Source: an uncultured Candidatus Saccharibacteria bacterium
Lineage (GTDB): Bacteria > Patescibacteriota > WWE3 > UBA101185 > 2-01-FULL-41-18
Length of the DNA stretch: 64,000 nucleotides
Direction of reading: 5' to 3'
NCBI GenBank assembly: GCA_964636285.1
Contig: CAZWQF010000004.1
Location: 67,666 to 131,665, forward strand
This document shows positions 4,088-59,093 of this stretch, one piece after another; within the stretch, counting starts at the first letter, position 1; the number at the start of each line of letters is the position of its first letter. The position numbers and the translations under genes are program-made. The notes below the pieces were generated by a model. It was not told where the DNA came from. It did no database searches and was given only the letters and a program-made list of their open reading frames with translations.

Positions 4088-4107
4088 CCCGGGAGACTAA
4101 AACCCGC
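4088..4107 (+). repeat. Single copy of dispersed motif CCCGGGAGACTAAAACCCGC in the rplK leader
   Basis: Exact 20-mer shared with 5293-5312 and 59887-59906; lies 25 nt upstream of rplK start. Confidence 0.7.
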
Positions 4108-4131
4108 GCTACTAAAGGAAATTTTAAGTAT

Positions 4132-4560
4132 ATGGCAGCAAAGAAATTAAAAGCACTAGTTAAACTAAACATACAAGCAGGTAAGGCTACCCCAGCACCT
4201 CCAGTAGGACCAGCACTTGGTCAGCACGGAGTTCCTTTGATGGAATTCTGTAAGGAGTTCAACGCAAGGACCTCAAAGATGGGAGACGATATTGTTCCTA
4301 TTATTATTTCGGTTTATGATGACAGATCTTTCACTTTCATCACCAAAACCCCACCTGCATCTTCCCTACTTGTTAAGGCAGCAGGTATTCCAAAAGGTTC
4401 AGGCAAACCAAATAAAGAAAAAGTAGGAGTAGTCACAAAAGCACAGGTTTCTGAGATTGCTGAGAGAAAAATGAAGGATTTAAATGCAAGGACCATTGAA
4501 GCTGCAATGAAAATAGTAGAAGGAACAGCAAGATCAATGGGAATTACTGTAAAGGAATAA
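4132..4560 (+). CDS. rplK: 50S ribosomal protein L11
   Basis: Conserved N-terminus [34 protein letters not shown]; 142 aa. Confidence 0.95.
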
Positions 4561-4561
4561 T

Positions 4562-5278
4562 ATGGCAAAAGAAACAAAAAAAGCTAAAAAGGGCGATGAG
4601 CTAAAGTCAAAAAAACACCAAATTGCTTCCAAAGTTGTGGATGCAGAAAAGGTGTACACACTTGATGAAGCACTAGACCTTGTTAAAAAATCATCTTACA
4701 CAAAGTTTGATGGTACTGTTGAGCTCCATATCAATCTTGATATAGACATCAAAAAGCCAGATCAAACTCTCAGAACCACAACTTCTCTTCCACACGGAAC
4801 AGGTAAAACTCTTAAGGTTGCAGCCTTCTCCGCTGTTGAGGTAAAAGGCGCAGATCTTTCTTTAAACGAAGAAGGAATCGCCCAAATCGAACAGAACAAA
4901 ATTAAGCCTGGAATCGACTTTGAGGCAGTTTGCGCTGACCCTTCGTTCATGCCAAAACTCACAAAGATTGCAAGAATTCTTGGTCCTAGAGGAATGATGC
5001 CAAATCCAAAGACAGGCACCGTTTCTACAGATCTTGTTAAAGTTGTAGCTGAGCTTAAAAAAGGCAAGGTTGAGCTTAGAAACGAAGCCAACGCACCTAT
5101 CATCCACACAAAGATTGGAAAAGTAAGCTTTTCAAAGGAAGCTTTGGTTGAAAACTACAACGAAATCTTCAAGACTTTAAGAGCTAACAGGCCACAAAAA
5201 GCAGGAACAGGCTGGATCAAGTCAGCATTCATTGCTTCAACAATGGGCCCATCCATTCAGGTGGCTATTGAAGCCTAA
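4562..5278 (+). CDS. rplA: 50S ribosomal protein L1
   Basis: 238 aa, L1 signatures (TLRTTTSLPHGTGK), translationally coupled to rplK. Confidence 0.95.
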   Translation: MAKETKKAKKGDELKSKKHQIASKVVDAEKVYTLDEALDLVKKSSYTKFDGTVELHINLDIDIKKPDQTLRTTTSLPHGTGKTLKVAAFSAVEVKGADLSLNEEGIAQIEQNKIKPGIDFEAVCADPSFMPKLTKIARILGPRGMMPNPKTGTVSTDLVKVVAELKKGKVELRNEANAPIIHTKIGKVSFSKEALVENYNEIFKTLRANRPQKAGTGWIKSAFIASTMGPSIQVAIEA

Positions 5279-22100: not shown

Positions 22101-25100
22101 AGAGTGTAACCTGCACCCCTTCGCCTGTTCCTGCGTTCCCTACCTGAACTGTATCAACATTTCCGGTTGCAAGCTGGTCAAGATTTATCAGGTAGCCAGA
22201 GTCAGTGCCGGAAGCTGCTGGGTTTCTAAAGACAAGAGAATCATCATCTGACGAAAGAGTAATGACAGTTTCTGAACCGTCAGGATCATTTGAGTAACCT
22301 TGCTGTAATGTTGTTGAAGCGCCTGAAATGTTATTCCACGAACCGCTGTACCAAACTTTAACCTGGTTATCGTCAGTATCAAAAGCCAAAAAACCATCTC
22401 CACTTGAAGGCCCACTTGCCAAAGCAGCCTGCGGAAGCTTAAATCCAGAAATTGCATTAGTAGCGTGCGAAATAGCCGAAAGATCAAAAAATCCTGTTGA
22501 GCTTGTAAGGGATAAAACTGCTCCTGTTCCTGCAAGTGTTTGGTTGCCATCAAACCTAACCGAACCATCCACCTCTAATGTGCCTTCAATATAGCCATCC
22601 TCACCATCAAGTGAAACAGTTGGTGAGCCGTTACCAACTTTAAGATTTCCAGTCAGAACATTGAATAAATCAGTCGCAGCACCTGTTGTTAAATCAAGTG
22701 AGTTTGTATCAACCAAAAATGTTGCGTCAGTGCCTGCGCTTGAATCAAATGTCCAGGTAAAGTCGCTGTTAGCTCCAAACGTAGTTGTTCCAATCTCTGT
22801 AGTGTCAAGATTGATTGTAAGTGTGTCTGTGTTTGATGTAACCGTGTCTATCCCATTCGATCCACCCAAAATATTTGCCGAGTTACCGCTTGAAATTGTC
22901 TGGTTTGTTCCACCCGCGTCGCTTGCAAGAGTCCATGACTGGTAGTTATCAAATGTACTCGAAAGGGCTGTTGCGGCGTCAGTTGTAGTAATTCCTGTTA
23001 AATGACCGTATGTATCAAGAGTGATGTCCTGTATAAAACTTGTCCCCGAATTATCAACGCTTGTTTGTGCAGATGTGTCGTCGTGGTCAATTGTTAAAGT
23101 GTTTGTTAGTGCTGTATATGCTGATGTAAGGGCGTTTCCTCCTGAAATCACTAATGAATCGCCAGATGCAATTGATTCGGATACGGTTCCATCTGAAACT
23201 GTCCATCCTGAGTATCCACCTCCACCTATCTGAATGAATGATGTTCCGTTGTATACATAAAGGGCATCTCCTGAGGTATCGTAAACAACATCTCCTTCAA
23301 CTGTCCCTGTAACTCCTGCTGGAGCTCCTGCGTTTGTAGGGAGATTAAGGCCTACGTTGTTGTTGTGAGGAGCTGTTTCAATTCTTCCGTCTGTAGTAAT
23401 AGAACCAATGTTTGTTAAATCTCCTGTGGCTGAGATATCCCAATCGGATGTATTAACTTCCATAGTGTCCCCACCATCTCCAAGGATTACGCTTCCTCCT
23501 GGAGTTAGAGTGAATGCTCCAGTTGTTGTAAAGGTTGTTGAAGCTCCATCAAATGCTATGTTTGTATCGGCTATGGAGAGATCACCGTTGGAATCTAGAG
23601 TTCCGTTTGCGTTTAAAGTGCTAGTCACTGTTGCAGTACCGTCAAAATTTGCGGACACATTAATGTCTAAAACATCTGCATAAATATTATCCCAGGGCAA
23701 AGACGAACCTCCAAGATCATTTGTCCCTACAGTACCCACTGGGATAACATCAGAATCTTGGGCTACTCTGGCAGTTATTGTAACAATATCGCTAGTAGCG
23801 TTACCTAGTGTCGTATTACCGTTTGCTGTCAGATCAGCTGTTGCAGTGATATTAGAGGTAGCTGTGATTGAGCCAGCAGCCACAACATCCCCACTATTTG
23901 AAATTGTAAGAGAATCAGTCCCATCATACTGCTCAAACACTACAAGACCTGCTGTTTGCCCATTCACACCTTGGACTAAAAATTGAATTTGGTCAGCATC
24001 CCCATCAATTGAGAATTTTGATGACGAAAGTGGGGAGCTTCCACCAAGCACTAACTCATCTGTTGTGTCTGTTAAGTAAACAGTGCTTCCAGAATCTGTC
24101 CACTTTGAACCTCCTGCTCCGCCTGAACAGTTTCCAGAGCTTAAGCAAACGGTGCCTGTTTCGGCTGGCAGTGTAATAGTTGCATCTGCCAAAGCATCTT
24201 CTGAAGTTAATATAACTTCATAGTCATCTGCAGTCACACCCTCAAAATATAATGTATGTCCTTGAGTGCCATCAAAAGCTGCGCCGGAACCAATATTTCC
24301 AACCGCAGTAATATCTCCAACCCCTCCAATACCTGAAGGTGCTGTACATGTCCATGCTCCACCGCCTCCTGATACCCACATGAGTACTTCGGAGTCATTA
24401 CATCCTCCAAGTAGTCTTAGTCCTGATGCATCTGTTTCCAAACCTGAGTTTGATGACGCATTGAGAGTTACTCCTGTTGTGGTCGTATCAAGATCAATTT
24501 GATCAGATCCTGCGGTAAGTCCATTGCCAACTCCAACGGCTAAGGTTGCTGCTCCCCCTTCGCTTGATACATCTCCCGTTAAACCATTTCCTGCCGTGAT
24601 TGAAGCAACATAGTTACCTGTTGTATCTGTTCCAAGTGCTACTGCGTCTGCTGAGATAGTTAAGTTTCCATTCGTACTGTTGATAGTTGCATCCCCTCCT
24701 AATGTTCTAAAGATAGGAGCTGTGGAAGATACACCTACTAGAATCTGACCGTCTGTGCCGGCGGTTGTAGCACCAATTGCTGAAGCTCCATTTCCATAAA
24801 GTATTCCATTTGAGGTTAAGGTTGTTGCTCCTGTTCCACCATTCCCAACTCCAAGCGTTCCAGTAATGTCTGAGCTCGCAAGACCTACAGCACTTGCAGA
24901 TAAAGTTCCAGAGTTGGATTTAACAACACCAGTTCCTAACCCGCTAACAACAAGGCTTCCAAAAGTTCCAGAACCTGTAACAGAAACATCCCCAGAAAAA
25001 GAAACGTCCCCTGTTGAATCTACTACTAAGTATCCTGTAGACCCTGCATTGTTCGTGACACTAAAAACATTGGCACCGCCTGAAGGAGCTTGAGCAACCG

Positions 25101-26346: not shown

Positions 26347-26387
26347 TATATTTTTGCGCCGTTGCGCTAAAATTTGGTGATACATTG

Positions 26388-26415
26388 AGTATAGAACCGC
26401 ACCAAAAAATGTCAA
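26388..26415 (-). promoter_or_regulatory. Sigma70-like promoter for the giant gene
   Basis: Minus strand: TTGACA (26415-26410), 16-nt spacer, TATACT (26393-26388), ~40 nt upstream of ATG 26346. Confidence 0.5.
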
Positions 26416-26579
26416 CAATTTAGTGTTATAGAATCAAGGTTTATAAATACTATGGGTACAAAATGAACTATGAAAAGTTAGGAATTTCTGAGAGGTAACT
26501 GAGATTTTTTTAAGGGTTTTTAATCTTGATGTGCGTACGGCTAGTCTCTAATTAAACATTAAACGTGGTGATTCAGGTG

Positions 26580-45765: not shown

Positions 45766-48700
45766 ATGAGCCGAACTAAGCCTATTTATAGGCTACCACT
45801 GCCCAGTTTAATTACGAACACTCGTGCCCTTGCAGAAAAACACATAAAAGGGTTGGGGTCTTTTTATACAATTTTAGCCTCTGTAAGTTTATTTTTCCTT
45901 ATAGCTACAACCTTTATAGCTTTTAACACCTCCTTACTCCGTAGTGCTAACGCTGCTACTGGTATAAATAGGCAAATTTCCTTTCAAGGTAAGGTTGTAA
46001 ACATTAACGGCACAAATGTAACTAACGGAAACTATAATTTTGTCTTCCGAATATACACTGTAGATACTGGAGGGTCCCCAATCTGGACAGAAACCAGAAC
46101 AGGAGGAAATCAGCTAACAGTGACTGATGGTATTTTTAGAGCTAGCCTTGGCTCAGTAACATCTCTCCCAGGCTCAATAGACTTTAACACCGACAATATT
46201 TACCTAAGCGTTGAGTTCAACACAACCGATGGCACAAACGAAATGAGTCCTAGAATTCGTTTTTCTGCTGTCCCGTACGCTATCAACGCTGAAAAAGTCT
46301 CAGGACTGACCGTAACAAACACAACAGGTACTTTAACGATTCCAAACTCAAAGACCCTTTCGATTGCAGACGATTTTTCAACGTCTGGTGCATTTGGACT
46401 AACTTTAACCACCACTGCATCTACCAATGTAACCCTACCCACTACAGGGACGCTTTCAACGCTTGCAGGCACTGAGATTCTTACAAATAAATCCATAGGG
46501 TCAACAGGACTAGTATTCTCTGGAGCTACTACGGATATAACTACAGCAACTGATGAGGACTTCACTGTGACCGTCAACGGAACTGGAGATTACATAATAA
46601 ACACGGATGCAGACACCCAGTTTAGACTTGCTGGGCTTGCTAACTGCGACAGCATTGACACTGACGCAAGTGGAAATCTTGCTTGCGGAACTGATGCAGG
46701 AGCCTCATCTTCCCCATTTAATACTGCAGTCGGCGTTATTGATAAGGCAACACTTGGAGATAGATTAAGGCTTAGATACGGAGATGTGGCGGACACACAG
46801 CTTGAGATCGAAAACACATTCCTTGGGTCTGCTCCAACAGCAGATGCAATGGTGATTGACCTTACAGGAGGCGCATCGGGTATTGTAACAAACGGGGTTG
46901 ATGCTCTTTCTATTTCAGCCGAATTTGGAAACGGAACTTCAAGCACAAATTCAGGTTTAAATATAATAATCACGCCTGTTGGATCCCCAACCGGCGACGA
47001 AACATTTTACGGATTGAACATTGCAACTTTAACCGGTACAAGCGCAACAGAAACAGCGGTAAACATTGGTGCGGGCTGGGACACTGGAATTAATTTAAAC
47101 GCTAATACACTTGTAAATATTGGTGATTCAGGTACAGACTTTACCCCAACTGGCGGGCTAACACTGGCCGGAGCTCTTCAGATTAACAACACCATAAATG
47201 CAACCGGAACCGCAACATTTGACGGGACTTTAGACGCCAACGGAATTTTTACTTTAGGCGATGGGGCCGAAATCGGCACAATTGACACTTCCGACTGGGA
47301 TATATCACTTACAGGAGACTTAACAGGTATCAGCTTTGACGCTAACGGAACAGGAAACTCAATCACAAACATTGAGTCAGCGGACATTCTTGATGGTACT
47401 ATTGCTCCTACAGACCTTAATCTAACAACTTCCGACTCCCCTAACGATGAGGACTGTCTAACTTTTGAAAATTCGACTACAGACTTTGAATGGCAAACAT
47501 GCCAGGTTTCCTGGAATAATTTAACAGCCCCTTCCGACAATCTTTCATTATCAATGGCTTCAAATACAACAACTTTTACATGGGGTAATGCAACAGGAGC
47601 CAGCGATATGTTCACTCTAACAGACACTACAAATAATACCGGAACTGGAGCAGTATTTAGTGTTAGCACTGCATCAGGCTCAACTGCTACACCTTTTGAG
47701 GTTTCAGCTCAAGGAAACCCTGCAATAACCGTGAGCAGTAGAGCAAATGTGGGAATTAAAAACATAAATCCACAAGAAGCTCTTGAGGTTGGAAATGACA
47801 CAACTAGAGCTAATATGAAAATATATGGGGACATACTTAAAGATGGATATATTGATTCTACAGGTTTAGCAAATGTTACTGATGTTTTTATTTACGACAC
47901 AACAAGAGACAGCGATGGAGGAGCATGGACTAATGGAACAATAGCTCAAGGACTTTCCTGGTATACCGAGACAAAAGATAATACAAGTACAGCATGCAGT
48001 ATCACAACTGATGATAGATGCGGTAGAAGCGAATTCCCAAAAAAAGCCTTAATTATTTCAACACCAAGCGCCGCATACATCTTTGATGCAAGAGATAATA
48101 CAATGTGGATGAAATTCAACCAGAATTCTGCTGGCTACGCTATTGGGGTGGATACAAACAACAACCCGACCGGAGTATTTGCGCTAAATGGGACCGTTTA
48201 CATTGGAATGAATGGTAGCGCTGCTAGCGGTCTGTACGCTATTAATTTTACAAATGACACTCTACTTAATTACGACTCAGTTGATAGAACCCAGGGAGAT
48301 AAAAACATTGCAAACAGGAATTCTGCAGTGAGCTACGCCACTAATGCTAATACAGCTTTTTCAATCACAGACAACATTGTAAATGATGTACATGGTGCGG
48401 TAATTTTTGGATCCACCACTGCGGGTAGCCCTCTGAATGGAGGTACCTTTATTGCGGCCGCAACAGACTCGGGCACCGCTGTAATAAACTTAACTGCTGG
48501 AAGAGTAATACGGTATGCAGGTACAACAATCACAAATGATATAAATCAGGTTTGGTTAACACGAAGAGGAAGGCTTTACCAGACAAATGAAGCGTTGTTA
48601 CAGGTTGAAAGATTTAATGATATAGAAGCTGATACAGCAAACCAAACTTCAGCAGACGATATTTATGACGAACAGTCAGCAAATGTACCTCACTTGGCAA

Positions 48701-51700
48701 AAACAGCTCCAACTATTTCCACATCTCCGGGCGCACTCTTTGTTCTTGAGAGAGCGTCAGTAGTAGATGATCAAGGAGATGTTCTGTACGTTGGACATTC
48801 GTTGGGATTGTCCGAACTACACCTTGGAAATACAGTATCCGCAACTGCAGTAGGATGGGCAAAATACTACACAATAGACGGTTCTTATCAGTACCTATCC
48901 GGAAACATAAGGGGAGCTTTTGCTATGAATGGGGCTTCAGGAGATATTACGGATCTTTCAATGAGAAATAATGTTCTGGATGTTAAAAACTCCCCTACTT
49001 ATGGTGTTGCAGGAGTACGCGGAAAAGCTATGTCATTTAATGGGACCAACCAGTATGCGTGTTCGGACACCAATAACGACGGCACTTGCGATCTGGATGC
49101 AGATTTCAGCCCTGCGGCTGTTTCATTTCATATTGAAGCCTGGTTCAAACACTCAACGGCTATATCAGGGACTGACGTTCTCATTGACCACACCTATACC
49201 ACAGCGCCAGCATACGCTGGAGGCTATAGAATTTTCATGAATGCATCAGGACAGATGGTATTTGGAATAGACGATGATGCTACTGCGTGGGGAGATGATG
49301 ATGTTGTGACATCTACCCAAACATATAACGATAATCAGTGGCACCACCTTGTTGCTGTAAACACAGACACTGGAATTTGTTTGTACATAGATGGCAAGCT
49401 GGCCGTAGCTTGTGACACCTCTTTACTTGCTACTGCCACACTTACAATTGCAAATGTGGTGCTTGGAGTTGGTGCTGATTGTTCTGTAGGGGCAAACTGC
49501 TCCACAGGCGCAAACTTTTGGACTGGGGAAATTGATGATGTAAACATATCTATGGGCGGATCCACAACATCGGATTCACTAACACAAGCACAAGTCAGGA
49601 AAAAATATCTTGAGGGCAGAGCAGCGCTATCTAGACCCCTGGTACAGGTTACGGATGCAACAACGGCTTCTTCTACAACTATTGGAGATTCAGCAGAAAC
49701 CTGGATTCCAAATCAGCTCTCAGGTTCTGTAGTTGAGATCACTCAAGGCACGGGAGTTGGTCAAACAAGGAGAGTTGTCTCAAATACGGCTACTACACTT
49801 ACAGTCACACCTGCATTTACAACCACACCAGATACCACCTCTGATTTTGAAATCGTACCCGAACAGCTCTACGGAGCAACAAACACAGTTACTTCGATTG
49901 CAGTTCAGGATACTGACGTGCTTGGGTACGGAAAGACACTAATGGTTGGAACAAATAATGGTTCAGACGGTGGAGGTGTGACGATATTTGGTGGACAAGG
50001 CCATGCATATATCACGGATGTTTACCACGCAGATGCAGGAAAAACCGATGATAATGCCGCAACATATTCCGGAACAGACTACGACGATATAACTGCTGTA
50101 GCTGCTAAGTCAGGGGTAAGGGTTGTAGGTAATCTGGCTGGGTTCTGGACAGAAACAGATAACAAAGAATACGAAGCAAACATAGACAGAATTATGAATG
50201 AGATTACAAACATGAAGCAGGAACTTCTGGTTGATGGTATTACGGGTACATCAACAGAGACCGGACTTATGGGAGGAGCGGATCTTGCTGAGTACTACTA
50301 CTCCACCGAGCTACTTGAGGCAGGAGAAGTTGTGGCAATAGATAAAACTTTGAATGCAGGAGTTAAAAGATCCAGCACAGCCTACCAAACTGATGTAATA
50401 GGCATTGTTGCTACGTACCCAGGAATTATTCTTGGCACTAAAACTGATAATTCATTTCCTATCGCTTTATCTGGAAGAGTGCCAGTAAAAGTGAGTATTG
50501 AGAACGGTATAATTTTGGCAGGAGATAGATTAACAGCGTCAAGTGTACCAGGGCATGCTATGAGAACAGATACTGCAGGTAGAGTTATAGGGGTTGCAAT
50601 TGAAGACATGAGCCTTGATTCTCTTAGTGCCTGCGTGGATAACAACGGCCAGCCAATTACAAACTCGCAAGGTGAGGTCAAAAAGTGCGGAACAATAACA
50701 GCTTTTGTAAACCTTTCGGATTACAATAAAAATTCAGACGACACATTACTTAGTAGCTGGTACCAACAGCAAGCTGCAACTGAGCTCTACACAAAACTTT
50801 ACGAATCAGAGAGCGCAAATCAGGAGAGTACAGAATCAGCAACAATTCAAAGCTGTATTGACAACAACTGCACAGATAACGCGCTAGCAAGGCAAAGAAC
50901 AAAAGTTAAAGAGATACTTTCTATACTCAAAAATGCCAGTGAGGCCGGTGAGAAAGAAGGAACCATGTCTGCTCTCACAAAGCTACCTGAACTGCTAGCC
51001 AAAAAAATAACTGCAAGTCAAGAAATTATCACTCCTCTACTCTCTTCGCTTGTTGTGAACTCTGAAGAAGTAAACTCGGTAAAAATTAAGTCTGACTACT
51101 TGGAGGCTGGTTCACTTAAAACAGATTCGATTCAAGCAAATAATAAGGACATTAAGATCAACGTAGCCGAGGATGGAAAGGTGATTCTTTTTGGCACTGA
51201 TTCAAATGGCAAACCAAAAGACATTATCACTTTTGATCAATATGGAAACGCAAGTTTTAACGGCGACATAACCGCTGGAACAATCACCGCCGACAAAATC
51301 AAAGCAAATCAGATAGAAGGCATGGAGATTGTTACGGACAAGCTATCTTCGATCTCCAAAGAGCTCTCAGTGCTCTCAAAACAGTCCTCAGAGAGCGCTT
51401 TTATTAATCCTGAAGATCCTGAGGGAACTCTAATAAAAGGCATCAAGATAGGCGCCCTAGAGGCTCAGACGGCCAAGGTTATAGACATCACTGCTCTTGG
51501 AAAGATGTTCGTTAAAAAATCTTTGACTGTGGATGGACCTGCAACGTTTAAGGCAAATACTTTCTTTGAAAAACTTGCCGTCTTTATTAACAAAGTAATC
51601 TTTAAAAACGAAGTAATTTTTGAACAAGTTCCTACTTTCAACAGCGATACAGCAGGCTTTGCAATTATTAAGGAAGGTGACGATAGAGTAAGAATCAAGT

Positions 51701-52224
51701 TTGAGAAGGAATATAAAGATTTGCCGGTTGTTAACGCCTCTATTGCTTTATATAAGGACGACGATGGCAAAGAGAAAGACCAGGAATTTAAAGATAGACA
51801 GGATAGGGTTTTGGATCACGAATACCCATACATTGTGAGCGAACTTTCAACTGAAGGATTCACAATTATCTTGGGCAAAGAGGCAAAGGAATCAATCAAC
51901 TTTAGCTGGGTGGCATTTGCGGTTAAAGACGCAGTAACAGCAGGCGAAGAAAAAAAGGTCAAAGATCAGGTTGAGAGGCTCTTAAATCCAGACTTTGTGA
52001 AGAAGGCACAGGAGAATGAAGACAAAGAGAATAAAGATGAAAATAAAAACGAAGTAAAAGAAGAAAAGAAAGAGGAGCCTGTAAAAGATGAGCTCAAAAA
52101 TGAGAATTCAGATTCTGGTTCTTCAAGCTCTGTGTTAGGAGCAAGCACAAACTCAAATTTTGTGGAGACTTTGTTTAACACCGGATTATCCGGCGGGAAA
52201 GAAAGCTCAAGTTCGGCAAGGTAA
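45766..52224 (+). CDS. Giant (2152 aa) secreted/anchored surface protein, paralog of the 16-kb gene, with LamG/concanavalin-like lectin domain
   Basis: Short cytoplasmic N-terminus plus TM (FYTILASVSLFFLIATTFIAF), no HTH. Shares the NLNANTLVNIG...DTSDWDISLTGDLT module with the 16-kb gene. LamG-like region ~48980-49460 (MSFNGTNQYA...NQWHHLVAVNTDTGICLYIDGKL). ALSGRVPVKVS module ~50260-50620, then coiled-coil and a K/E-rich tail. Confidence 0.85.
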   Translation: MSRTKPIYRLPLPSLITNTRALAEKHIKGLGSFYTILASVSLFFLIATTFIAFNTSLLRSANAATGINRQISFQGKVVNINGTNVTNGNYNFVFRIYTVDTGGSPIWTETRTGGNQLTVTDGIFRASLGSVTSLPGSIDFNTDNIYLSVEFNTTDGTNEMSPRIRFSAVPYAINAEKVSGLTVTNTTGTLTIPNSKTLSIADDFSTSGAFGLTLTTTASTNVTLPTTGTLSTLAGTEILTNKSIGSTGLVFSGATTDITTATDEDFTVTVNGTGDYIINTDADTQFRLAGLANCDSIDTDASGNLACGTDAGASSSPFNTAVGVIDKATLGDRLRLRYGDVADTQLEIENTFLGSAPTADAMVIDLTGGASGIVTNGVDALSISAEFGNGTSSTNSGLNIIITPVGSPTGDETFYGLNIATLTGTSATETAVNIGAGWDTGINLNANTLVNIGDSGTDFTPTGGLTLAGALQINNTINATGTATFDGTLDANGIFTLGDGAEIGTIDTSDWDISLTGDLTGISFDANGTGNSITNIESADILDGTIAPTDLNLTTSDSPNDEDCLTFENSTTDFEWQTCQVSWNNLTAPSDNLSLSMASNTTTFTWGNATGASDMFTLTDTTNNTGTGAVFSVSTASGSTATPFEVSAQGNPAITVSSRANVGIKNINPQEALEVGNDTTRANMKIYGDILKDGYIDSTGLANVTDVFIYDTTRDSDGGAWTNGTIAQGLSWYTETKDNTSTACSITTDDRCGRSEFPKKALIISTPSAAYIFDARDNTMWMKFNQNSAGYAIGVDTNNNPTGVFALNGTVYIGMNGSAASGLYAINFTNDTLLNYDSVDRTQGDKNIANRNSAVSYATNANTAFSITDNIVNDVHGAVIFGSTTAGSPLNGGTFIAAATDSGTAVINLTAGRVIRYAGTTITNDINQVWLTRRGRLYQTNEALLQVERFNDIEADTANQTSADDIYDEQSANVPHLAKTAPTISTSPGALFVLERASVVDDQGDVLYVGHSLGLSELHLGNTVSATAVGWAKYYTIDGSYQYLSGNIRGAFAMNGASGDITDLSMRNNVLDVKNSPTYGVAGVRGKAMSFNGTNQYACSDTNNDGTCDLDADFSPAAVSFHIEAWFKHSTAISGTDVLIDHTYTTAPAYAGGYRIFMNASGQMVFGIDDDATAWGDDDVVTSTQTYNDNQWHHLVAVNTDTGICLYIDGKLAVACDTSLLATATLTIANVVLGVGADCSVGANCSTGANFWTGEIDDVNISMGGSTTSDSLTQAQVRKKYLEGRAALSRPLVQVTDATTASSTTIGDSAETWIPNQLSGSVVEITQGTGVGQTRRVVSNTATTLTVTPAFTTTPDTTSDFEIVPEQLYGATNTVTSIAVQDTDVLGYGKTLMVGTNNGSDGGGVTIFGGQGHAYITDVYHADAGKTDDNAATYSGTDYDDITAVAAKSGVRVVGNLAGFWTETDNKEYEANIDRIMNEITNMKQELLVDGITGTSTETGLMGGADLAEYYYSTELLEAGEVVAIDKTLNAGVKRSSTAYQTDVIGIVATYPGIILGTKTDNSFPIALSGRVPVKVSIENGIILAGDRLTASSVPGHAMRTDTAGRVIGVAIEDMSLDSLSACVDNNGQPITNSQGEVKKCGTITAFVNLSDYNKNSDDTLLSSWYQQQAATELYTKLYESESANQESTESATIQSCIDNNCTDNALARQRTKVKEILSILKNASEAGEKEGTMSALTKLPELLAKKITASQEIITPLLSSLVVNSEEVNSVKIKSDYLEAGSLKTDSIQANNKDIKINVAEDGKVILFGTDSNGKPKDIITFDQYGNASFNGDITAGTITADKIKANQIEGMEIVTDKLSSISKELSVLSKQSSESAFINPEDPEGTLIKGIKIGALEAQTAKVIDITALGKMFVKKSLTVDGPATFKANTFFEKLAVFINKVIFKNEVIFEQVPTFNSDTAGFAIIKEGDDRVRIKFEKEYKDLPVVNASIALYKDDDGKEKDQEFKDRQDRVLDHEYPYIVSELSTEGFTIILGKEAKESINFSWVAFAVKDAVTAGEEKKVKDQVERLLNPDFVKKAQENEDKENKDENKNEVKEEKKEEPVKDELKNENSDSGSSSSVLGASTNSNFVETLFNTGLSGGKESSSSAR

Positions 52225-52263
52225 AACTTAATATGCCCTGAAAAGGGCTCCAAAATTTAATCT

Positions 52264-52300
52264 AAGCGGCGGGTTCATCTACAACCTAACCCCGCCGCTT
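52264..52300. other. Strong 10-bp-stem hairpin after the giant gene
   Basis: AAGCGGCGGG-(17 nt)-CCCGCCGCTT, with an A-run on the plus side and no canonical U-run on either strand. Confidence 0.5.
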
Positions 52301-52559
52301 AAAAAATGTACAGACTTGGGAGTTTTGAAGTGTAAGGTTAAAAATTAAATTTGATATAAGTAAATTCCGCGGGTGCAAGTCAAAGTGTTTTAAACGCAAA
52401 ACAGCCCGGCCTCCACACTCATCATTCGTAACTTTCGTCACAAAATCAAAGTTTTGGATTCCGGGCTGTCACTAGCACCTAGGCTAGATTTTTGTCATTT
52501 TTACTCAGTCACTTGGGCGGAAGTGTGAGCTCGGATGACTTCCGATTTAGAGCAAGAGA

Positions 52560-53081
52560 TCAGGCGCGGGCGGATGTACGCATGGTACGATTCCGCTTGT
52601 TGACCGACTTCTTGCTTTTGCCGCCGCCCATCTGTGGACCACCCTGACCCCCGGTGCCCTTGGCTTTCTGGCACGCGGCGGCGCGGTTCTGCTGGCGGGC
52701 CTTGCGAGCGGCCTCTTTCTGGTTCCGAACACGATTCGCCTCGGCTTTATCCTGTTGCGAAGCGCCCTGCGTAGCGTATTGGACAAACGCCTTGGTGGCA
52801 AGTTCAACAGCGGTCTTGCGGTTGACGGCGGCGTTGCGATAGCCGATCCACTCTTCATTGGCAGCCTCTCGCGCCGCGTGGTAGCTAGCACAGGACTTGT
52901 CGCAGAAGCGGTGAACCACCTCATGAGAACCCTCTTGGACGGGGGGGAAAGACCACCCAGACAAGGAGGTACGCATGAGCACCGCAGGCGCAGCGCCCGA
53001 TCGGCTCGGGCTCCAGTTCCTTGATCGTAACCTTGCTCAAGCTCGACAAAGAAACTTCCGATGCAAAGTAGTGGGACATGA
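52560..53081 (-). pseudogene. Island ORF a: possibly frameshifted gene (basic, Gly-rich C-terminal tail) split at a G7/C7 homopolymer
   Basis: A 52-aa ORF with SD AAGGAGG (start ~53081, MSHYFASEV...) ends just upstream of the 140-aa frame 52560..52982 (…KTAVELATKAFVQYAT…KSKKSVNKRNRTMRTSARA). The frames change at the run GGGGGGG 52938-52944. Either a true pseudogene or a sequencing error. Confidence 0.35.
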
Positions 53082-53328
53082 CTGCCTCCTTGCCTTTTTA
53101 GGGCATGAAAAAAGAACGAAAATTGAGCCACTTCTAACAACTTCTTTGTTATAACAAAGCCGTCAAAAGCGGCCCAACTTCTCTTTTTGGGAGGACTGCC
53201 CTCCCCCATTCGGTTAATAGTATTGTTGAGATTTGAAAAGCGAATAGATACAAAAAAGGGGCGTCTGCCAGCGAATGCTACGGCATCTTTATTAGAAAAT
53301 TAAAACTAAATTGAAAACGCCTCCGAGT

Positions 53329-53484
53329 TGGGATGATACCAAGTTCGGAGGCGCCTATGAATGCAGTCCCTGATTTTATACCGGTTCGGGCTTGCTTGCC
53401 TTTCTCGCTAATACATAAAGGCAAACGAATTATTCCGGCAACCACGCCCGCGTTGTGCGAAGGTGGCTAATGAAGGGAAGGCAG
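53329..53484. repeat. Island intergenic repeat R2, copy a (hairpin plus conserved ~130-nt body)
   Basis: Hairpin GCCTCCGA-(loop)-TCGGAGGC. The body is shared with 55453-55622 through the conserved blocks TACCGGTTCGGG, AATTCCGGCAACCACG, GCGAAG-TGG-TAATGA and AGGCAG. Confidence 0.55.
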
Positions 53485-53876
53485 TCTATTTTTGCACAAC
53501 CCTTTTAACATGCATCAAATTTCTAATGTTGACCCGCTTACTGCGATAATCTGCAGAAAGCCCCGTTGTAGTTAGGTCTCATCTACGCCTGATGCAGGCG
53601 AGGCAGCTAGCAAGTTCCTAAGAACCTGTTTTGCCGGAGTACTCGACACCAGTTGACGATCAAACTGTCAACTAGTCGTTGTTCCACCCACTCATCCCCT
53701 TAACCGCGCCCTTTTCTCTGCGGGATAAATCATTACGGGGATTGCGGAAGCTCTCTGGACCCTTTCCATCTAGGAACCCAGTGCAGAAAGTGAGCTTCAT
53801 TCATTAAGCCCAGAACGTACCTGGACAGGATTTACTGATCGATGGGTTGATCAGCTGCACATCCTTTTTTCCAAGG

Positions 53877-54197
53877 CTATTTCGGAGTCGACGGCAACGG
53901 CAGGTAAAGCAGAAGGTATCCGCTAACCATACCAAAGTCGTACGTCAGAACCGAAAAGCGAGTGACCACCTCAGTTGCAGCCATGACCATGTCAGCTTGC
54001 AGAATCTGCATGCGCATGGGAACTTCAAGCTGCTTCTTGGTGGGCTTAATCGCAAGGACGTAAACATCCTTACTCGCTTTGCACCAAGCAAAGCGACCAC
54101 CAAGCCTCTCACGCAGCACCCTGGCATCCTCAAACTGCTTTCCAGGCTTTTTGTGCGTGAACTCGAGCTTGCCGATCTTGAAATCCTTGGGAGGCAT
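53877..54197 (-). CDS. Island ORF b: hypothetical 106-aa protein
   Basis: SD AAGGGGGT 7 nt upstream of ATG; protein-like composition. Confidence 0.5.
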   Translation of the reverse strand: MPPKDFKIGKLEFTHKKPGKQFEDARVLRERLGGRFAWCKASKDVYVLAIKPTKKQLEVPMRMQILQADMVMAATEVVTRFSVLTYDFGMVSGYLLLYLPLPSTPK

Positions 54198-54198
54198 G

Positions 54199-54405
54199 TT
54201 AATACCCCCTTCTGGATAAGAGCGAGCTCAAGAACAGGAGCCCCGCCCAAAACAACGCCACGGTGATACAAGCAAGAGGTACCGCTACCTCAAAGCTCAT
54301 ACCGTGACGGCTTGACGACAACATGGAGGCTGAAAAGACAACCACATTCACCGCCAAGACCAACATCGACGCCTTGACACGATCTTTCCAACTGTTTTTT
54401 CCCAT
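54199..54405 (-). CDS. Island ORF c: 68-aa two-TM membrane peptide (holin-like topology)
   Basis: Two hydrophobic helices and a charged C-terminus. SD AAAGGAAGG upstream. Ends 1 nt before ORF b. Confidence 0.4.
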   Translation of the reverse strand: MGKNSWKDRVKASMLVLAVNVVVFSASMLSSSRHGMSFEVAVPLACITVALFWAGLLFLSSLLSRRGY

Positions 54406-54849
54406 GGTAGGGAAACCTTCCTTTCGGAATACTCATAAACGCTGTTGGAAAGCGTTTCTGAGAGGTTTATCGGATTGAAGTACTTTGATAAACCCAAATA
54501 GAACAACTCGATTCTATTTGTTATCCTATTTTGATTTACCAAGTAGCTCTCAACTTTAGCCTGCTTTCGTCTTGCCTTTCGGAAGACTCATCAGTACCTC
54601 TTTGAGGTAAAGCAGGACAAGACACGCGTTCGATTTAAGATTTTAGAACATAGTGTACTAAAATCCCCTGCTTGGAGGTTTTGGCTATATCTCATGAACC
54701 AGCTTGCTTCCGCATCGGGTTTCTCTCCTCTGCAACAGGCTGCACGCTTCCTTCTCTAATTGCTTAGAGCTAGTACGCTATGACCTGCGCTTCAACGGGC
54801 GAGTGTCCCTACGGAGTTTTTAACTTAGGGCTAGCCATGAGATGCGATT

Positions 54850-55158
54850 TTAGGCGATTCGAGTTACAACTTTGGCCTTGAGCTGACTCACGTCAGAGAC
54901 CGCGGTGTGTACTGTCCATCCATTCTCACGCTTGTTCTGCGCAAGAGGAACGGCCAGGTAACTTTCGCCAATCTGCAGACCACCAAAAAGCTTGGAAGTC
55001 GCAGGCACTGCACCTAAAGCCTCAACGAGGCTCTTGGTATCCGGGTGTCCCACGTAATGCGGGGTGCCGGACAAGTCTTGCGGAAAGGCTACTTCTTTAC
55101 ATTCAAAAGTGCCTCCCGTAAGAACAGTGCTGGATAGAATCGCAACATACTTAGCCAT
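54850..55158 (-). CDS. Island ORF d: hypothetical 102-aa protein
   Basis: SD GGAGGTG 6 nt upstream of the ATG. Sequence MAKYVAILSSTVLTGGTFECKEV... Confidence 0.5.
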   Translation of the reverse strand: MAKYVAILSSTVLTGGTFECKEVAFPQDLSGTPHYVGHPDTKSLVEALGAVPATSKLFGGLQIGESYLAVPLAQNKRENGWTVHTAVSDVSQLKAKVVTRIA

Positions 55159-55384
55159 TTTTCACCTCCGTGTGGGCTGGCTAGCCCATGAAAATCCCCT
55201 ACCCGCTGGCTTTCGTTTTGGGTTACGCCTCTTTAATTACTTGAGGGAAAAACCTGCTAAAAATTCTATTACAGACTTTTCCCCCAAGTAATTATTGAGA
55301 ATATATCGAACTGCGTATCTTGCCACATAGGTTAATCTTTATTAATTTGTTGAAGATAACCTACAGAGAGAGTTGCTAAATTAG

Positions 55385-55448
55385 CTTCTTCCCTCGTTTA
55401 GCTAAAGAAACACCTACCAAGCCTTCTTTAGCTAAATGAAGAAAGAGT
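55385..55448. repeat. Island repeat R1, copy a (hairpin-containing ~64-bp direct repeat)
   Basis: ~94% identical to 56036-56099. Internal hairpin TAGCTAAAGAA-(14 nt)-TTCTTTAGCTA. Confidence 0.7.
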
Positions 55449-55452
55449 TTGT

Positions 55453-55622
55453 TTAAGCGCCCCTCAGGTTATACCACTATTGGGGCGCTTAAGGATGAAC
55501 TCGTTCTATACCCTAGTTTTACACCGGTTCGGGTCATCTATGCCAGCAAATGATGATCGAACAATAAATTCCGGCAACCACGTTCGCCTAAGCGAAGATG
55601 GGTTAGTGATGCGCTAGGCAGG
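55453..55622. repeat. Island repeat R2, copy b
   Basis: 11-bp-stem hairpin TTAAGCGCCCC-(loop)-GGGGCGCTTAA, then a body homologous to 53353-53484. Confidence 0.55.
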
Positions 55623-55952
55623 AATCAAATCCCCCCAACTCCAGCTAGAAAAGTCGGGACCATACTCCCACACCACATTCTCAAGCTGGAATTCCCACTC
55701 TCCTTGGAGCCGCCAAGCATGGATGTGCTCACATAGAATGTCGGCGGGCTCATCGTCCTCGTGCACCTCGCTCGGAAGGTGGGCAGTGCATGGCCATTTG
55801 GACGTCCCAGGATCCACAGGCTCAATCATGAACCAGTTGGCCTCTCCAAACACTGCTCTAAAAGACCTGCGCTCCAGCGTCCCCTCACAGTACACGCCTC
55901 GCGATATTTGGGTATCGTAAGGTTCCCACATTGAGATATAAACCTGAAGCAT
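55614..55952 (-). CDS. Island ORF e: hypothetical 112-aa acidic protein
   Basis: SD AAAGGAG ~8 nt upstream of the ATG. Trp/Glu-rich (…EHIHAWRLQGEWEFQLENVVWEYGPDFSSWSW). Confidence 0.5.
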   Translation of the reverse strand: MLQVYISMWEPYDTQISRGVYCEGTLERRSFRAVFGEANWFMIEPVDPGTSKWPCTAHLPSEVHEDDEPADILCEHIHAWRLQGEWEFQLENVVWEYGPDFSSWSWGDLIPA

Positions 55953-56035
55953 TTAGCACTACTCCTTTCTTGGAGTTACAACCGTTATCCCGTGCTTGGA
56001 TAATGGAGGTTAGTTAGAGAAAAGAACTCTGGAAA

Positions 56036-56099
56036 CTTCTTCCCTCGTTCAGTTAAAGAAACACCTACCAAGCTTTCTTTAGCTAAATGAAGAAAGAGT
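56036..56099. repeat. Island repeat R1, copy b
   Basis: Direct repeat of 55385-55448, upstream of ORF e and adjacent to the right island border. Confidence 0.7.
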
Positions 56100-56375
56100 G
56101 TGCACGCCCGGCCTGACTTATATCCAATTCACGAAATTTTATTTACTAGAGTAAAACCAAAAAAGCCGAGGCTTTTGAGAAACCACTTTCTCCAAAATCT
56201 CGGCCTTTCCAAACTTAGAATATCACCTAGGTAATAGTTTGAGAGGTAGGTTTTGGTAGGTTTCACCTATAATCTCTTACATGACAATTATATCCTATAG
56301 TATATAATAGGTCAACAGTGACCGCTTTGAACAAGTAGTCTTACATTCAATTTTTAAAACTTGTAGTATTAGGAC

Positions 56376-59093
56376 ATGTCTAAGTACTCACCTACTCAGG
56401 ACGACTTGGAATCCGATCAGAGTATAAAAATTGAAGAACAAAGAGCTACAATCGAATCTGTAGAAAAAATCCTAGTATTACTTGAAAATTTTGAGTTTGA
56501 GGAAGCCATGTATCTCAAGGAGGAAATCCTTCAAACTCCAAGTGATGACATCACAGAGATCCTTAGATCAGATGAGGAGCTTAGGCAGCGTGTGCTTGAC
56601 ACCATAAATCTCTACGCAACTAAATATTCAGCTAAAAAGTATTTACTAAACGAGGAACATTTGGAAACCTACGTGAAAACCAGGAATTTGATAAAGATTT
56701 TTGGAGTTGCACCAGATATGTATCCTGAAAGTATTGAGAATGCGATGGTGAGAACAATAAAAGCACTCTCGGTACATGATGGCTTTGCAACAACATTAGG
56801 AAGGTGTGAGGAACTCCATCTAGAAAGGGCACCGCATGTTTATGACACAGTCAGAAAAACACTTTATGAGTGCGCAGTGGAACAACCAATAATCTATGGC
56901 TCGTCTGATGAAGCTTTCATGTATACAAGATGTATTGAAATAATGGCCAATTTATATGAATACAAGGATGAAGAGATATCAAACCTACTTACAGAAGCGT
57001 TTATACATCCACTAGATGACTATGCAAACTGGTCTCGTGAAACTCGTATTGTAATGAGCGCAGTAGAGTACTTTGGCGTAGCTGATCCCGTTTATTCAAA
57101 TCCAGAGGTAATAAGCCACGTTAGAGATAAATTCGTATACTTTATAGAAAGTGACACAACAGGAATTCCAGAATACATAGCTGAAAAGTGCGCGGTACAG
57201 CTGGATGTTCAAGCTCCAGAATACCCACATGGCATGACGTATGCAGACTTAATTAAAGTAAGAGGCTCCGATGAGGCGGCAGGTAAATGGAACCTTAAAA
57301 GGATGCGTGGGTTAACCTATCTTGTGAAATCAGATGCGCTGCAAATTATTGCAGCACAAGGAGACGGGGCTTCTCATTACTTCCATGAGATTTCAAAAGG
57401 TATCCCCTCTTCTAATCAAGTAGAGCGAGAAGAAATAGAATTTTATGTTTATATTGCTAAAAAGTATGGGGTGCAGGCTAGATCGGTATTGGTAAATCTT
57501 GTAAACCGAAAAGGTACTGACATAGCAGATCAAAAAGCTGATATAGACATTTATATGGCATCTGTCGGAGTACCAGATCAAAAGCTTCTCGATGAATTCA
57601 AACATACGGAACAAGACCCAATAGCGCGAGAGGCGTTAGTAAGTAGGGTTAATACAATGAAAAAAGGGGCAATTGATGCAGATTCAGATTCGCTATGGCA
57701 ACCGGGTGGAGTAGCAGTTTTATATAGTGTTTTTCCTCCAACCTCTTCGGTAACATCTGCAGAATATCAAAGAATGTTATCTAACAGATGTGACTACAGT
57801 TTAGATGCAAATTTATCAAACATAAATAATAGGAGAGTAAGAGTACCTACGGGTAGATTAATGTTTGAATCCGGGGCAGAACTTGACAGAGACCTCTGGG
57901 ACTTGATTAACAACGCGATTGAAAATGCTAATACAAACCCGGCAGGATCGATAGATTCAAATGCAATTGCATTAAAACTTATTAAATCTGCCGTTTCTGG
58001 ACAGGAAGCCGATCAAGACTTGATAGAGCTTTTATACAGATTTCATTTACAAAGCGGTGGCGCTAAAGTGGAGCCAGCTGAAGACTCCTCTTATCAATCA
58101 TTAGCAAGGCTCTCTGAGTTTGTGAGAACAGAGATTGCTGGAAAATATATCCCGCAGGTACTCCAAACTTATTCACAAGAACATGCCGAGGAGTGGGCAC
58201 AGATAGAATCAGAGCTATTTAACAGAGTTAAAAAAACTAGGGAAAAGGATTTTGCTAGAGTTAAGAGTCTAATGCTAGGGTTAAAAAAATCAAAAAACCC
58301 TAGCGATGCTGAAAGATCTACTCAGATGCTACAGGAGACCCTGGAAAAATACGCATTATCTATTGCTGAGGCACAGATAATGGATGAAGATAGATTAAAA
58401 TCAATGATTGAAGCAGTCCCAGTGACTGAAGATGAAGATATACAGAGATCCGAGGACTACTACAACTCCCCTGAATTTCACAGGGCTTTAGATAAATTTG
58501 AAGAAAAGTACGATAGAAATAAGCTGGCTATAGGTAAGATCAGAGATCAGGCGATGAACCCTTTAATTAGATCCATGAACACAGAACTTGGAAAATTTAC
58601 TACCGAAGGTGATATAGAGGAGGAATCCAGAGAATTAGAATTAATTATAACCAAAAAACATGCTCACTCTATTGCAGGTTTCAATATGGGCGTGTGCACC
58701 GTGATTGATGAAGACCTGTGGGACAACCCAAACTTTATGAATTGCATCCTAGTAGATAGGGACAGAAACCTTGGGTTAGGTGGCATGCACTTGTTTGTCG
58801 CTGGTGGATACCTCACACTTCCAGGAATAAATCCATCAAATGAAGCGTTATCCAACGTAGAGTTAGGCAACCTAACGGATCAGATGCTTGAGTACTCTAA
58901 AGAAGTTGCTCGAGCCCTAAATTTAAGGGGAGTGCTTATACCCACCGACAAGTATATCGCTTCGAACAGGTCTAGGGTTTACTCATATCTGGAGGATCAA
59001 AAGTGGCCAAAGCTGAGATTACCAGCCCCAGTACACTTTGCAACAGTTGGTAACACATCTTACGAAATTAGAGACTGCTGGGTAGTTAAATAA
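56376..59093 (+). CDS. Large (905 aa) hypothetical cytoplasmic protein, mostly alpha-helical, with possible Cys/His C-terminal domain
   Basis: AT-rich, host-like codon usage. No signal peptide. C-terminal segment IAGFNMGVCTVIDEDLWDNPNF...LGLGGMHLFVAGGYLTLPG has a conserved-looking Cys/His pair. Confidence 0.5.
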   Translation: MSKYSPTQDDLESDQSIKIEEQRATIESVEKILVLLENFEFEEAMYLKEEILQTPSDDITEILRSDEELRQRVLDTINLYATKYSAKKYLLNEEHLETYVKTRNLIKIFGVAPDMYPESIENAMVRTIKALSVHDGFATTLGRCEELHLERAPHVYDTVRKTLYECAVEQPIIYGSSDEAFMYTRCIEIMANLYEYKDEEISNLLTEAFIHPLDDYANWSRETRIVMSAVEYFGVADPVYSNPEVISHVRDKFVYFIESDTTGIPEYIAEKCAVQLDVQAPEYPHGMTYADLIKVRGSDEAAGKWNLKRMRGLTYLVKSDALQIIAAQGDGASHYFHEISKGIPSSNQVEREEIEFYVYIAKKYGVQARSVLVNLVNRKGTDIADQKADIDIYMASVGVPDQKLLDEFKHTEQDPIAREALVSRVNTMKKGAIDADSDSLWQPGGVAVLYSVFPPTSSVTSAEYQRMLSNRCDYSLDANLSNINNRRVRVPTGRLMFESGAELDRDLWDLINNAIENANTNPAGSIDSNAIALKLIKSAVSGQEADQDLIELLYRFHLQSGGAKVEPAEDSSYQSLARLSEFVRTEIAGKYIPQVLQTYSQEHAEEWAQIESELFNRVKKTREKDFARVKSLMLGLKKSKNPSDAERSTQMLQETLEKYALSIAEAQIMDEDRLKSMIEAVPVTEDEDIQRSEDYYNSPEFHRALDKFEEKYDRNKLAIGKIRDQAMNPLIRSMNTELGKFTTEGDIEEESRELELIITKKHAHSIAGFNMGVCTVIDEDLWDNPNFMNCILVDRDRNLGLGGMHLFVAGGYLTLPGINPSNEALSNVELGNLTDQMLEYSKEVARALNLRGVLIPTDKYIASNRSRVYSYLEDQKWPKLRLPAPVHFATVGNTSYEIRDCWVVK

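Follow-up and report, generated by a model that had tools for sequence, protein, structure and literature searches.

In T4-type phages, cassettes of small genes are delimited by promoter-early stem-loops, or PeSLs (Arbiol et al. 2010, PMC2839356; Comeau et al. 2014, PMC4122927), which end the transcription arriving from upstream, initiate that of the genes downstream and, by recombining, shuffle ORFan-flanking cassettes (PMC2839356). A second related system is the 'DUF1874 motif', a candidate RNA or single-stranded DNA which alternates with open reading frames (ORFs) as RNA-ORF-RNA-ORF and is considered a possible unusual attC (Weinberg et al. 2017, PMC5737381). Furthermore, prophages carry hammerhead ribozymes on the flanks of single genes or of short blocks of genes whose identity varies (Perreault et al. 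2011, PMC3088659). Here we analysed a stretch of 64,000 nt (the window) from contig CAZWQF010000004.1 of an uncultured Candidatus Saccharibacteria bacterium, and specifically two repeats, R1 and R2, in the spacers of an island whose five ORFs all lie on the minus strand. We propose that R1 and R2 are non-coding and act in cis as boundary modules, delimiting small gene cassettes whose transcription runs from the minus strand, and jointly with this that the island was horizontally acquired and is mobile-element-like within a Patescibacteria-type chromosome; we hold this joint proposal with a confidence poised evenly between belief and doubt.

R2 is a gapped and diverged repeat of about 170 nt, with two copies (R2a and R2b, Table 1) that share about 67% identity. 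In a self-blastn comparison, 55621-55511 aligned with 53484-53368 at 66.7% identity over 120 nt (E 2e-5), and in reciprocal nhmmer searches each copy retrieved the other with E 4e-7 to 5e-7 in 0.88 Mb, which confirms the two-copy repeat reported in the initial annotation of this DNA. Both copies contain the blocks ACCGGTTCGGG and (A)TTCCGGCAACCACG without any change, and neither block has another mismatch-free occurrence in the window; GCGAAG..TGG..TGA and AGGCAG are likewise common to both. These blocks had been listed in the initial annotation and are indeed present in the two copies, except that the first base of each block as quoted there differs (TACCGG versus CACCGG). Its boundaries had to be moved: the GC hairpin of R2a starts at 53316-53318, so that position 53329, given as the start of R2a, belongs to the hairpin loop, and the end given for R2b, 55622, is replaced by 55621. 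Regarding the placement of the elements, the GC hairpin exists, although on the minus strand it ends R2 instead of beginning it, and of the two repeats said to stand upstream of small genes R1 does so, whereas R2 lies 3' of gene blocks, namely ORF112 in the case of R2b and ORF68-ORF106 in the case of R2a. Three ORFs separate the two R2 copies. R2b shares one base with the stop codon of ORF112 and adjoins R1 with 1 nt between them.

R1 is also real, but it measures 67 nt and not the roughly 64 nt first given; its two copies are 94% identical in a repeat scan. The hairpin TTTAGCTAAAGAA/TTCTTTAGCTAAA, which had been called perfect, is so in the 55385 copy, whereas the 56036 copy carries two substitutions in one arm (TTCAGTTAAAGAA). 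There is no third copy of R1 within the 64-kb window, where its 13-mer appears elsewhere only as scattered matches with 1-2 mismatches. The two copies bracket exactly one cassette, ORF112 plus R2b, of 651 bp.

R2 is not coding, as had been supposed from the start. The gaps from block to block differ between copies by 2 and 7 nt, which are not multiples of 3, and the mini-ORFs on the plus strand of the two copies run through the common blocks in different frames and specify unrelated peptides. An origin of R2 as the decayed end of a duplicated gene, or as a source of plus-strand small peptides, could be suggested by the contact of R2b with the ORF112 stop codon and by the ATG mini-ORFs that follow GGAGG/GGGG on the plus strand of both copies. 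Nevertheless, no ORF ends in R2a and the self-blastn similarity ends at ORF112 without reaching into it; since the similarity stops there, R2 does not derive from the decay of a duplicated gene end. We therefore rejected this candidate, which is largely refuted by the frames, the spacing and the extent of the similarity, and which we consider extremely improbable.

On the minus strand R2 opens with CUGCCU and continues with a junction of hairpins (P1-P4). P2 is formed by CCACCUUCGC/GCGGGCGUGG in R2a and by CCAUCUUCGC/GCGAACGUGG in R2b, and P3 by UGCCGG/CCGGUR (UGCCGG/CCGGUA in R2a), lengthened by UUCG/CGAA. P4, inside P3, has unrelated sequences in the two copies (UUUGCCUUU/AAAGGCAAG versus UCAUC/GAUGA). 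After P3 come UAAAA..AGGG and then the 11-bp GC hairpin with its 18-nt loop, whose stem differs between the copies and whose loop motif GGUAU(C/A)A is common to them. Although their sequences differ between the copies, P4 and the terminal GC stem remain paired in both, and the junction has conserved unpaired nucleotides. The minus-strand fold of R2a reached -67.8 kcal/mol (z-score -4.3) and that of R2b a z-score of -3.1; the GC hairpins alone gave -22.9 kcal/mol (z -5.8) in R2a and -22.0 kcal/mol (z -4.7) in R2b.

The structure was assessed with ViennaRNA on a hand alignment of the two sequences fitted to the structure, given that MAFFT alone places the P2 helix one base off. In this alignment, no pair of the model is non-canonical when read on the minus strand (40/40 and 34/34), whereas the plus strand reaches 36/40 and 31/34. 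Of the 41 pairs, eight are not the same in R2a and R2b, yet none of these loses its pairing: four keep it through G-U and the other four through double changes. RNAalifold, which had been proposed initially as a check, gave -42.8 for the minus strand and -35.1 for the plus strand. The covariation of a structured RNA claimed in the initial annotation is supported in part, within two sequences aligned by hand. These structure-preserving substitutions on the sense strand are suggestive of a folded RNA, and the functional strand of R2 is the minus strand.

Along the minus strand, the island would begin with a strong promoter-like site followed by a long hairpin with a U6 tract. Next come the -10-like motif TTGGATATAAG, 15 nt, R1, a putative leader of 84 nt and ORF112; then R2b, with the -10-like TGGTATAAC in its hairpin loop, 16 nt, R1 again and the hairpin I2; then ORF102, a hammerhead motif, ORF68 and ORF106; and, after a spacer of about 390 nt, R2a, with the -10-like TGGTATCAT in its loop and a U-rich tract. 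The series would end with the hairpin H3 and ORF52/ORF140. From this order it follows that R2 closes units, and that either R1 or a long hairpin opens them. R2 would thus be a 3' module, whose junction P1-P4 and GC hairpin most likely end or protect the transcript of the upstream cassette, its conserved junction core being a candidate RNA domain of the 3' untranslated region. Furthermore, the loop sequence TGGTAT(C/A)A resembles an extended -10 element that may serve the next cassette. We read the R2 hairpin as a putative composite of terminator and promoter because a stem-loop overlapping a -10 element between ORFans is the layout of PeSLs. R1 would be the 5' module: its 22-bp hairpin lies 15-16 nt past a -10-like motif and probably is the leader hairpin of the next transcript, where it may work as a stabiliser, as an RNase III-type processing site or as an operator. 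Promoter or operator roles are possible for the R2 hairpin loops and for the TTTAGCTAAA palindromes of R1. Nothing observed speaks for the role in replication or partition that had been suggested initially. Given their 94% identity and their position around one cassette, the two R1 copies may also be a substrate for homologous recombination, which would gain or lose the 651-bp unit of ORF112 and R2b.

Several points weigh against these boundary modules. A role as terminator and promoter leaves the conservation of the R2 junction core unexplained. Loops of 18 nt are atypical of intrinsic terminators (our terminator scan was limited to loops of 8 nt), and the GC hairpin is followed by the U-rich tract UUUUCAAUUU in R2a and by no U-tract in R2b. 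The promoter motifs are consensus matches only, and in R2b the -35-like hexamer stands 20 nt from the -10-like TGGTATAAC. No ORF stands immediately ahead of R2a, which follows ORF106 only after an unexplained spacer of about 390 nt. Because no homologues were found, the covariation evidence for R2 is limited to two sequences and is not statistical; each element is present just twice, and the collections searched contain no homologue of either. Finally, R1 could act as DNA, because it folds equally on both strands and contains DNA palindromes.

The last point leads to an alternative in which the repeats are arrays of DNA operators and a dimeric regulator of ORF112 and ORF102 binds the TTTAGCTAAA palindromes of R1. 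Each arm of R1 holds this perfect 10-bp palindrome, which makes four in all, with GCTAAATTAGC beside one copy; R1 stands upstream of two genes and shows no strand preference in folding (-29.9 kcal/mol, z -3.9 on the minus strand; -28.9 kcal/mol, z -5.5 on the plus strand). However, one of the palindromes is degraded in the upstream copy, the conservation covers all 67 nt of R1, loop included, and not just the palindromes, no island ORF is recognisable as a DNA-binding protein by Pfam or PHROG, and R2 would be left unexplained. We regard operators as an unlikely explanation.

We give a similarly small probability to the alternative that R1 and/or R2 are DNA recombination sites shuffling the cassettes, be it as attC-like sites of an integron-like array without integrase or as hot spots of homologous recombination. 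The exact bracketing of one cassette by R1 copies of 94% identity and the orphan genes of the cassettes fit with this, as do the mini-circles formed by recombining PeSLs (PMC2839356), the RNA-ORF-RNA-ORF order of the DUF1874 motif and its discussion as a possible unusual attC (PMC5737381). Repeated spacers also flank relatives of ORF102 elsewhere. On the other hand, the R2 copies, at 67%, are too diverged for homologous recombination, and on inspection we found no RYYYAAC/GTTRRRY core sites at inverted ends, the one near-match, GTTGGGA, being within a loop. Neither recombinase nor integrase domains were detected among the island ORFs, none of which has a Pfam match, and attC was rejected as a candidate. 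Regarding the strand, attC sites fold on the strand opposite to the sense one, whereas the R2 helices need G-U pairs of the sense strand that become A-C mismatches on the opposite strand.

Another alternative makes R2 a riboswitch or attenuator-like leader of the next gene, with the junction as sensor and the GC hairpin as terminator. Junction, hairpin and U-tract of R2a do resemble an aptamer with its expression platform, and the two paralogous copies precede two different genes. Nevertheless, 240-300 nt with large hairpins lie between R2 and the next start codon, R2b lacks the U-tract and begins within the stop codon of the preceding gene, no competing antiterminator pairing can be seen and there is no match to an Rfam riboswitch. 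The chance that R2 is such a leader is slim.

The searches for homologues of R2, also suggested initially, retrieved none in the collections covered. The two-block pattern had 0 matches in genome contigs and 0 in metagenome contigs, and a looser pattern had 3 in viral contigs, all of them in high-GC coding DNA. Single R2 blocks had 8 and at least 118 chance matches in viral contigs, none with other R2 features; an nhmmer follow-up gave weak matches (E 0.06-0.23) in six related phage contigs, which corresponded to a gene start on the opposite strand (Shine-Dalgarno sequence and ATG). There was no blastn match to R2 in GenBank phages, and nhmmer found nothing resembling R1, R2, I2, H3 or the other spacers in 84 ORF102 loci and five Logan contigs of the closest relatives. 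The Rfam 15 scan of the window at gathering thresholds returned only a tRNA-Pro, so R1 and R2 match no family, and at E<=10 the region 52200-56400 and each R2 slice (221 nt) returned only spurious matches of microRNA or small nucleolar RNA type.

The core of R2 could instead be an autonomous RNA, either a self-cleaving or processing RNA in the slot of a hammerhead, twister or twister-sister, or a stable small RNA derived from the 3' untranslated region. In favour of it, a hammerhead motif lies 0.9-1 kb from each R2 copy, hammerheads and a twister-sister flank relatives of ORF102, the R2 junction has conserved unpaired nucleotides and R2 has no Rfam match. R2 also bears a loose resemblance to twister (ACUGCC, GCCGG..CCGG, AUAAAA, AGGG). 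However, the twister and twister-sister models did not match the 221-nt R2 slices even at E<=10, the helices are inconsistent between the copies and no cleavage-site signature could be assigned in R2. Twister consists of P1-P2-P4, with a 4-bp P2 beside the conserved GC of L2, pseudoknots T1 and T2, and a U-A cleavage site (PMC5408937); in R2 the nucleotides flanking GCC and AAAA form no common P2, R2b has no GGG for T1, and P2, T1 and T2 could not be placed by hand consistently in both copies. Thus, twister and twister-sister were discarded. Ribozymes are known to cluster near ribozymes and particular phage genes (PMC10085705), but most structured motifs near ribozymes do not cleave (PMC10085705), and R2 has only two copies. 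We consider an autonomous RNA improbable, and still less probable, on analogy with the ribozymes near DUF1874/AcrIII-1-like genes, that the ~115-nt core represents an undescribed class of catalytic or processing RNA serving anti-defence cassettes as hammerhead and twister-sister do there.

Table 1. Features of the island in window coordinates; the -10-like motifs TGGTATAAC and TTGGATATAAG were read from the sequence, and the promoter-like sites came from a promoter scan.
Feature	Position	Strand	Remarks
R2a	53306..53484	-	structured core 53368-53484 (CUGCCU ... AGGG)
R2a GC hairpin	53316-53355	-	11-12 bp, 18-nt loop, then UUUUCAAUUU
Promoter-like site in R2a	53333..53361	-	TTCATA, 17 nt, TATCAT, TG upstream; scan 9/12; consensus match only; -10-like element (TGGTATCAT) within the GC-hairpin loop
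R2b	55453..55621	-	core 55511-55621, from last base of ORF112 stop codon
R2b GC hairpin	55453-55492	-	UUAAGCGCCCC/GGGGCGCUUAA, 18-nt loop, no U-tract
Extended -10-like motif TGGTATAAC	55468..55476	-	in R2b hairpin loop, 16 nt upstream of R1
R1, downstream copy	55385..55451	-	near-perfect hairpin, 9 + 13 bp; between R2b and ORF102 leader
R1, upstream copy	56036..56102	-	84 nt upstream of ORF112 start codon
-10-like motif TTGGATATAAG	56118..56128	-	15 nt upstream of upstream R1
Strong promoter-like site	56315-56287	-	TTGACC, 17 nt, TATAAT
Long hairpin with U6	56218-56151	-	about 60 nt past the strong promoter-like site
Type III hammerhead motif (predicted)	54560..54616	-	between ORF102 and ORF68
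Hammerhead stem II copy AUGAGUAUUCCGAAAGG	54420..54436	-	94% identity (repeat scan); just upstream of ORF68 start
Hairpin I2	55229..55299	-	about 28 bp, ORF102 leader
Hairpin H3	53109..53188	-	about 33 bp, G-U-rich, ends 30 nt upstream of ORF52
ORF112	55614..55952	-	orphan; strong Shine-Dalgarno
ORF102	54850..55158	-	DUF1874 / AcrIII-1 (ring nuclease) fold, predicted
ORF68	54199-54405	-	two putative hydrophobic segments, judged by eye
ORF106	53877-54197	-	orphan
ORF52 + ORF140	52560..53079	-	ORF52 52921-53079, ORF140 52560-52982

The hammerhead motif of the island has the core CUGAUGA/GAAA, with the U16.1-A15.1 pair and U at H17, and an alignment to RF00008 shows this core intact. Stems I, II and III have 6, 5 and 5 bp, stem II carries a GAAA tetraloop, and the whole agrees with a strict structural descriptor. 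Its score against Rfam Hammerhead_3 was 24.5 bits (E 0.056), below the gathering threshold of 48.5 bits; the motifs beside ORF102 relatives that agree with this descriptor also remained below it, with 26.6-44.6 bits. The strict descriptor found six motifs in 580 kb, all of them on the sense strand beside ORF102 or its relatives: two flanking the gene in locus L051, and the others in L061/L085, in L050 and in the window. The motif of the island is a complete type III motif of a putative ribozyme. Regarding the copy of its stem II, the rest of the core has decayed and the 3' part forms the Shine-Dalgarno region of ORF68, which looks like the relic of a ribozyme.

Other structures were found in the spacers. 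H3 is stable on the minus strand only (-41.3 kcal/mol, z -6.6, versus -19.8, z -0.2 on the plus strand), and this bias is clear evidence of a structure at the RNA level in the sense transcript. I2 shows a modest preference for the minus strand (-33.6 kcal/mol, z -6.4, versus -28.4 kcal/mol). Each may be a leader structure or a site of RNase III type. At the head of the island, 56151..56315 of the minus strand could encode a small RNA of roughly 130 nt or a terminated leader. The strong promoter-like site there and one for ORF905 are divergent.

The island covers ~3.8 kb (about 52400-56130) and is foreign to its surroundings, with a GC content of 0.45-0.63 compared with about 0.38-0.42 in the flanks, which encode cellular enzymes (GH57, starch synthase, WecG). 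Both junctions were recovered at 100% identity in one independent Logan assembly. Giant ORFs lie on either side, one of 5417 aa (10165-26418, minus strand) and another of 2152 aa (45766-52224, plus strand) that stops about 200 nt short of the island; such giant ORFs are typical of surface proteins of the candidate phyla radiation (CPR).

A strong Shine-Dalgarno sequence can be recognised ahead of each of the five island ORFs, and none of them matches Pfam or PHROG. ORF112, ORF106 and ORF140 are orphans, without any relative among the billions of proteins searched. Thus, four of the five ORFs are orphan or unmatched and ORF102 is the sole island gene with homologues. The reading frames of ORF52 and ORF140 differ, and the two ORFs overlap where a C7 run is found, near 52943-52949. 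This overlap may reflect a frameshift (programmed, sequencing error or pseudogene) in a protein that is rich in Cys and His and has a basic tail. Downstream of ORF106, the spacer 53485-53876 of the minus strand contains no ORF of at least 40 aa ending at R2a and no recognised RNA, and has a hairpin, AGTTGACGATCAAACTGTCAACT, at 53651-53673. The mobile-element-like character that we propose for the island is based on the orphan or unmatched ORFs, on ORF102 with its DUF1874/AcrIII-1 fold, on the hammerhead motif and on the ribozymes and repeats flanking the relatives of ORF102.

ORF102 has no Pfam match and has 41 relatives besides itself, the nearest of them in metagenome-assembled genomes of Patescibacteria/Saccharibacteria/WWE3. 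The motif VGHP.T is invariant in the 42 family members. The AlphaFold (AF2) model of ORF102 had a pLDDT of 85, and its top Foldseek matches (6scf, 2j6b, 2x4i, 8y7f and 2j85) comprise the viral ring-nuclease anti-CRISPR AcrIII-1 (6scf), AFV3-109, SIRV1 ORF114, Crn2 and STIV B116. According to this model, ORF102 has the DUF1874 / AcrIII-1 fold of anti-type III CRISPR ring nucleases.

The relatives of ORF102 are found in similar surroundings. Ribozymes are present at the loci L051, L061, L050 and L056, the last one carrying a type II hammerhead and a twister-sister at gathering level (plus strand, 4097-4162 and 4573-4641), 0.4-0.9 kb upstream of the gene. Thus, this DUF1874-like family looks like a ribozyme-associated one. 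Furthermore, many of these loci have repeated hairpin spacers, specific to the lineage, on both sides of the gene and 600-1500 nt apart. L015 (1233-3566) has four spacer copies 602-844 nt apart, with a 13-bp GC hairpin and a second hairpin, and L008 (5475-6751) has an element of the same type and a duplicated gene; in both, the second hairpin has a possible CCCGCCC/GGGCGGG pseudoknot and a Shine-Dalgarno sequence. In L082 (2924-3967) the repeat has 127 nt, in L061 (4741-6386) a repeat of 122 nt brackets the gene and its hammerhead, and L006, L052 and L079 likewise carry repeated hairpin spacers. Neighbouring small ORFs are bracketed too in L015, L008, L082 and L061. None of these spacers has sequence likeness to R1 or R2, those tested, including the array spacer of L015, had no Rfam match, and the other proteins and spacers of the island are absent from all the ORF102 loci.

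If the proposed boundary modules are right, CPR arrays of anti-defence and ORFan cassettes would share the modular logic of the hyperplastic regions of phages, in which structured RNA punctuation (hairpins, ribozymes and terminator/promoter composites) would delimit and mobilise single genes. The DUF1874/AcrIII-1-like family, repeatedly embedded between repeat elements and self-cleaving ribozymes, would give a handle on the arrangement of the DUF1874 motif. R2 is moreover a candidate for a new structured RNA, in the kind of place that has yielded new ribozyme classes before; with two copies it is a lead and not a discovery.

Regarding the known systems, some share only part of the features of R1 and R2. 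As in the prophage cassettes flanked by hammerheads, structured RNAs surround genes within a presumed long sense transcript, and a type III motif is present both in the island and beside relatives of ORF102, although R1 and R2 lack a hammerhead core. Twister shares with R2 the short motifs ACUGCC, GCCGG..CCGG, AUAAAA and AGGG, which follow one another in equal order, and has optional hairpins at places equivalent to those of R2, although its Rfam model does not match R2. Integron attC sites are also associated with cassettes and structured, with a poorly conserved sequence and short conserved blocks, but R2 has no R''/R' core sites, end-to-end hairpin or integrase, and its wobble pairs favour the sense strand.

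Like R2, the DUF1874 motif has multiple stems and conserved unpaired nucleotides, no integrase nearby, recurrence in intergenic regions and an association with genes of the DUF1874 family, to which the predicted fold of ORF102 and the two island spacers would correspond. It occupies consecutive intergenic regions, whereas the R2 copies are three ORFs apart. No Rfam family named for this motif is matched by R2 or by the L015/L008 spacers; these spacers may be the published motif (PMC5737381).

PeSLs differ from R2 in sequence, with no similarity, and R2 has in addition a conserved junction domain of about 115 nt; they belong to genomes of T4-type phages, whereas the island is in a Patescibacteria-type chromosome with cellular flanks. 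Nevertheless, both are short repeated modules between small ORFan genes (here ORF112, ORF106 and ORF140, with R1 bracketing ORF112 and R2b). PeSLs combine a GC-rich stem-loop (terminator) with a sigma70-like promoter able to overlap the -10 box, and R2 would do likewise with its putative terminator hairpin and its promoter-like motifs. Furthermore, copies flank single genes in both cases, which would permit indels or mini-circles by recombination. Thus, R1 and R2 are new sequences without a family, but as a kind of element, the structured punctuation of mobile ORFan and anti-defence cassettes, they are already known, and by analogy their closest counterparts are the PeSL cassettes and the DUF1874 motif.

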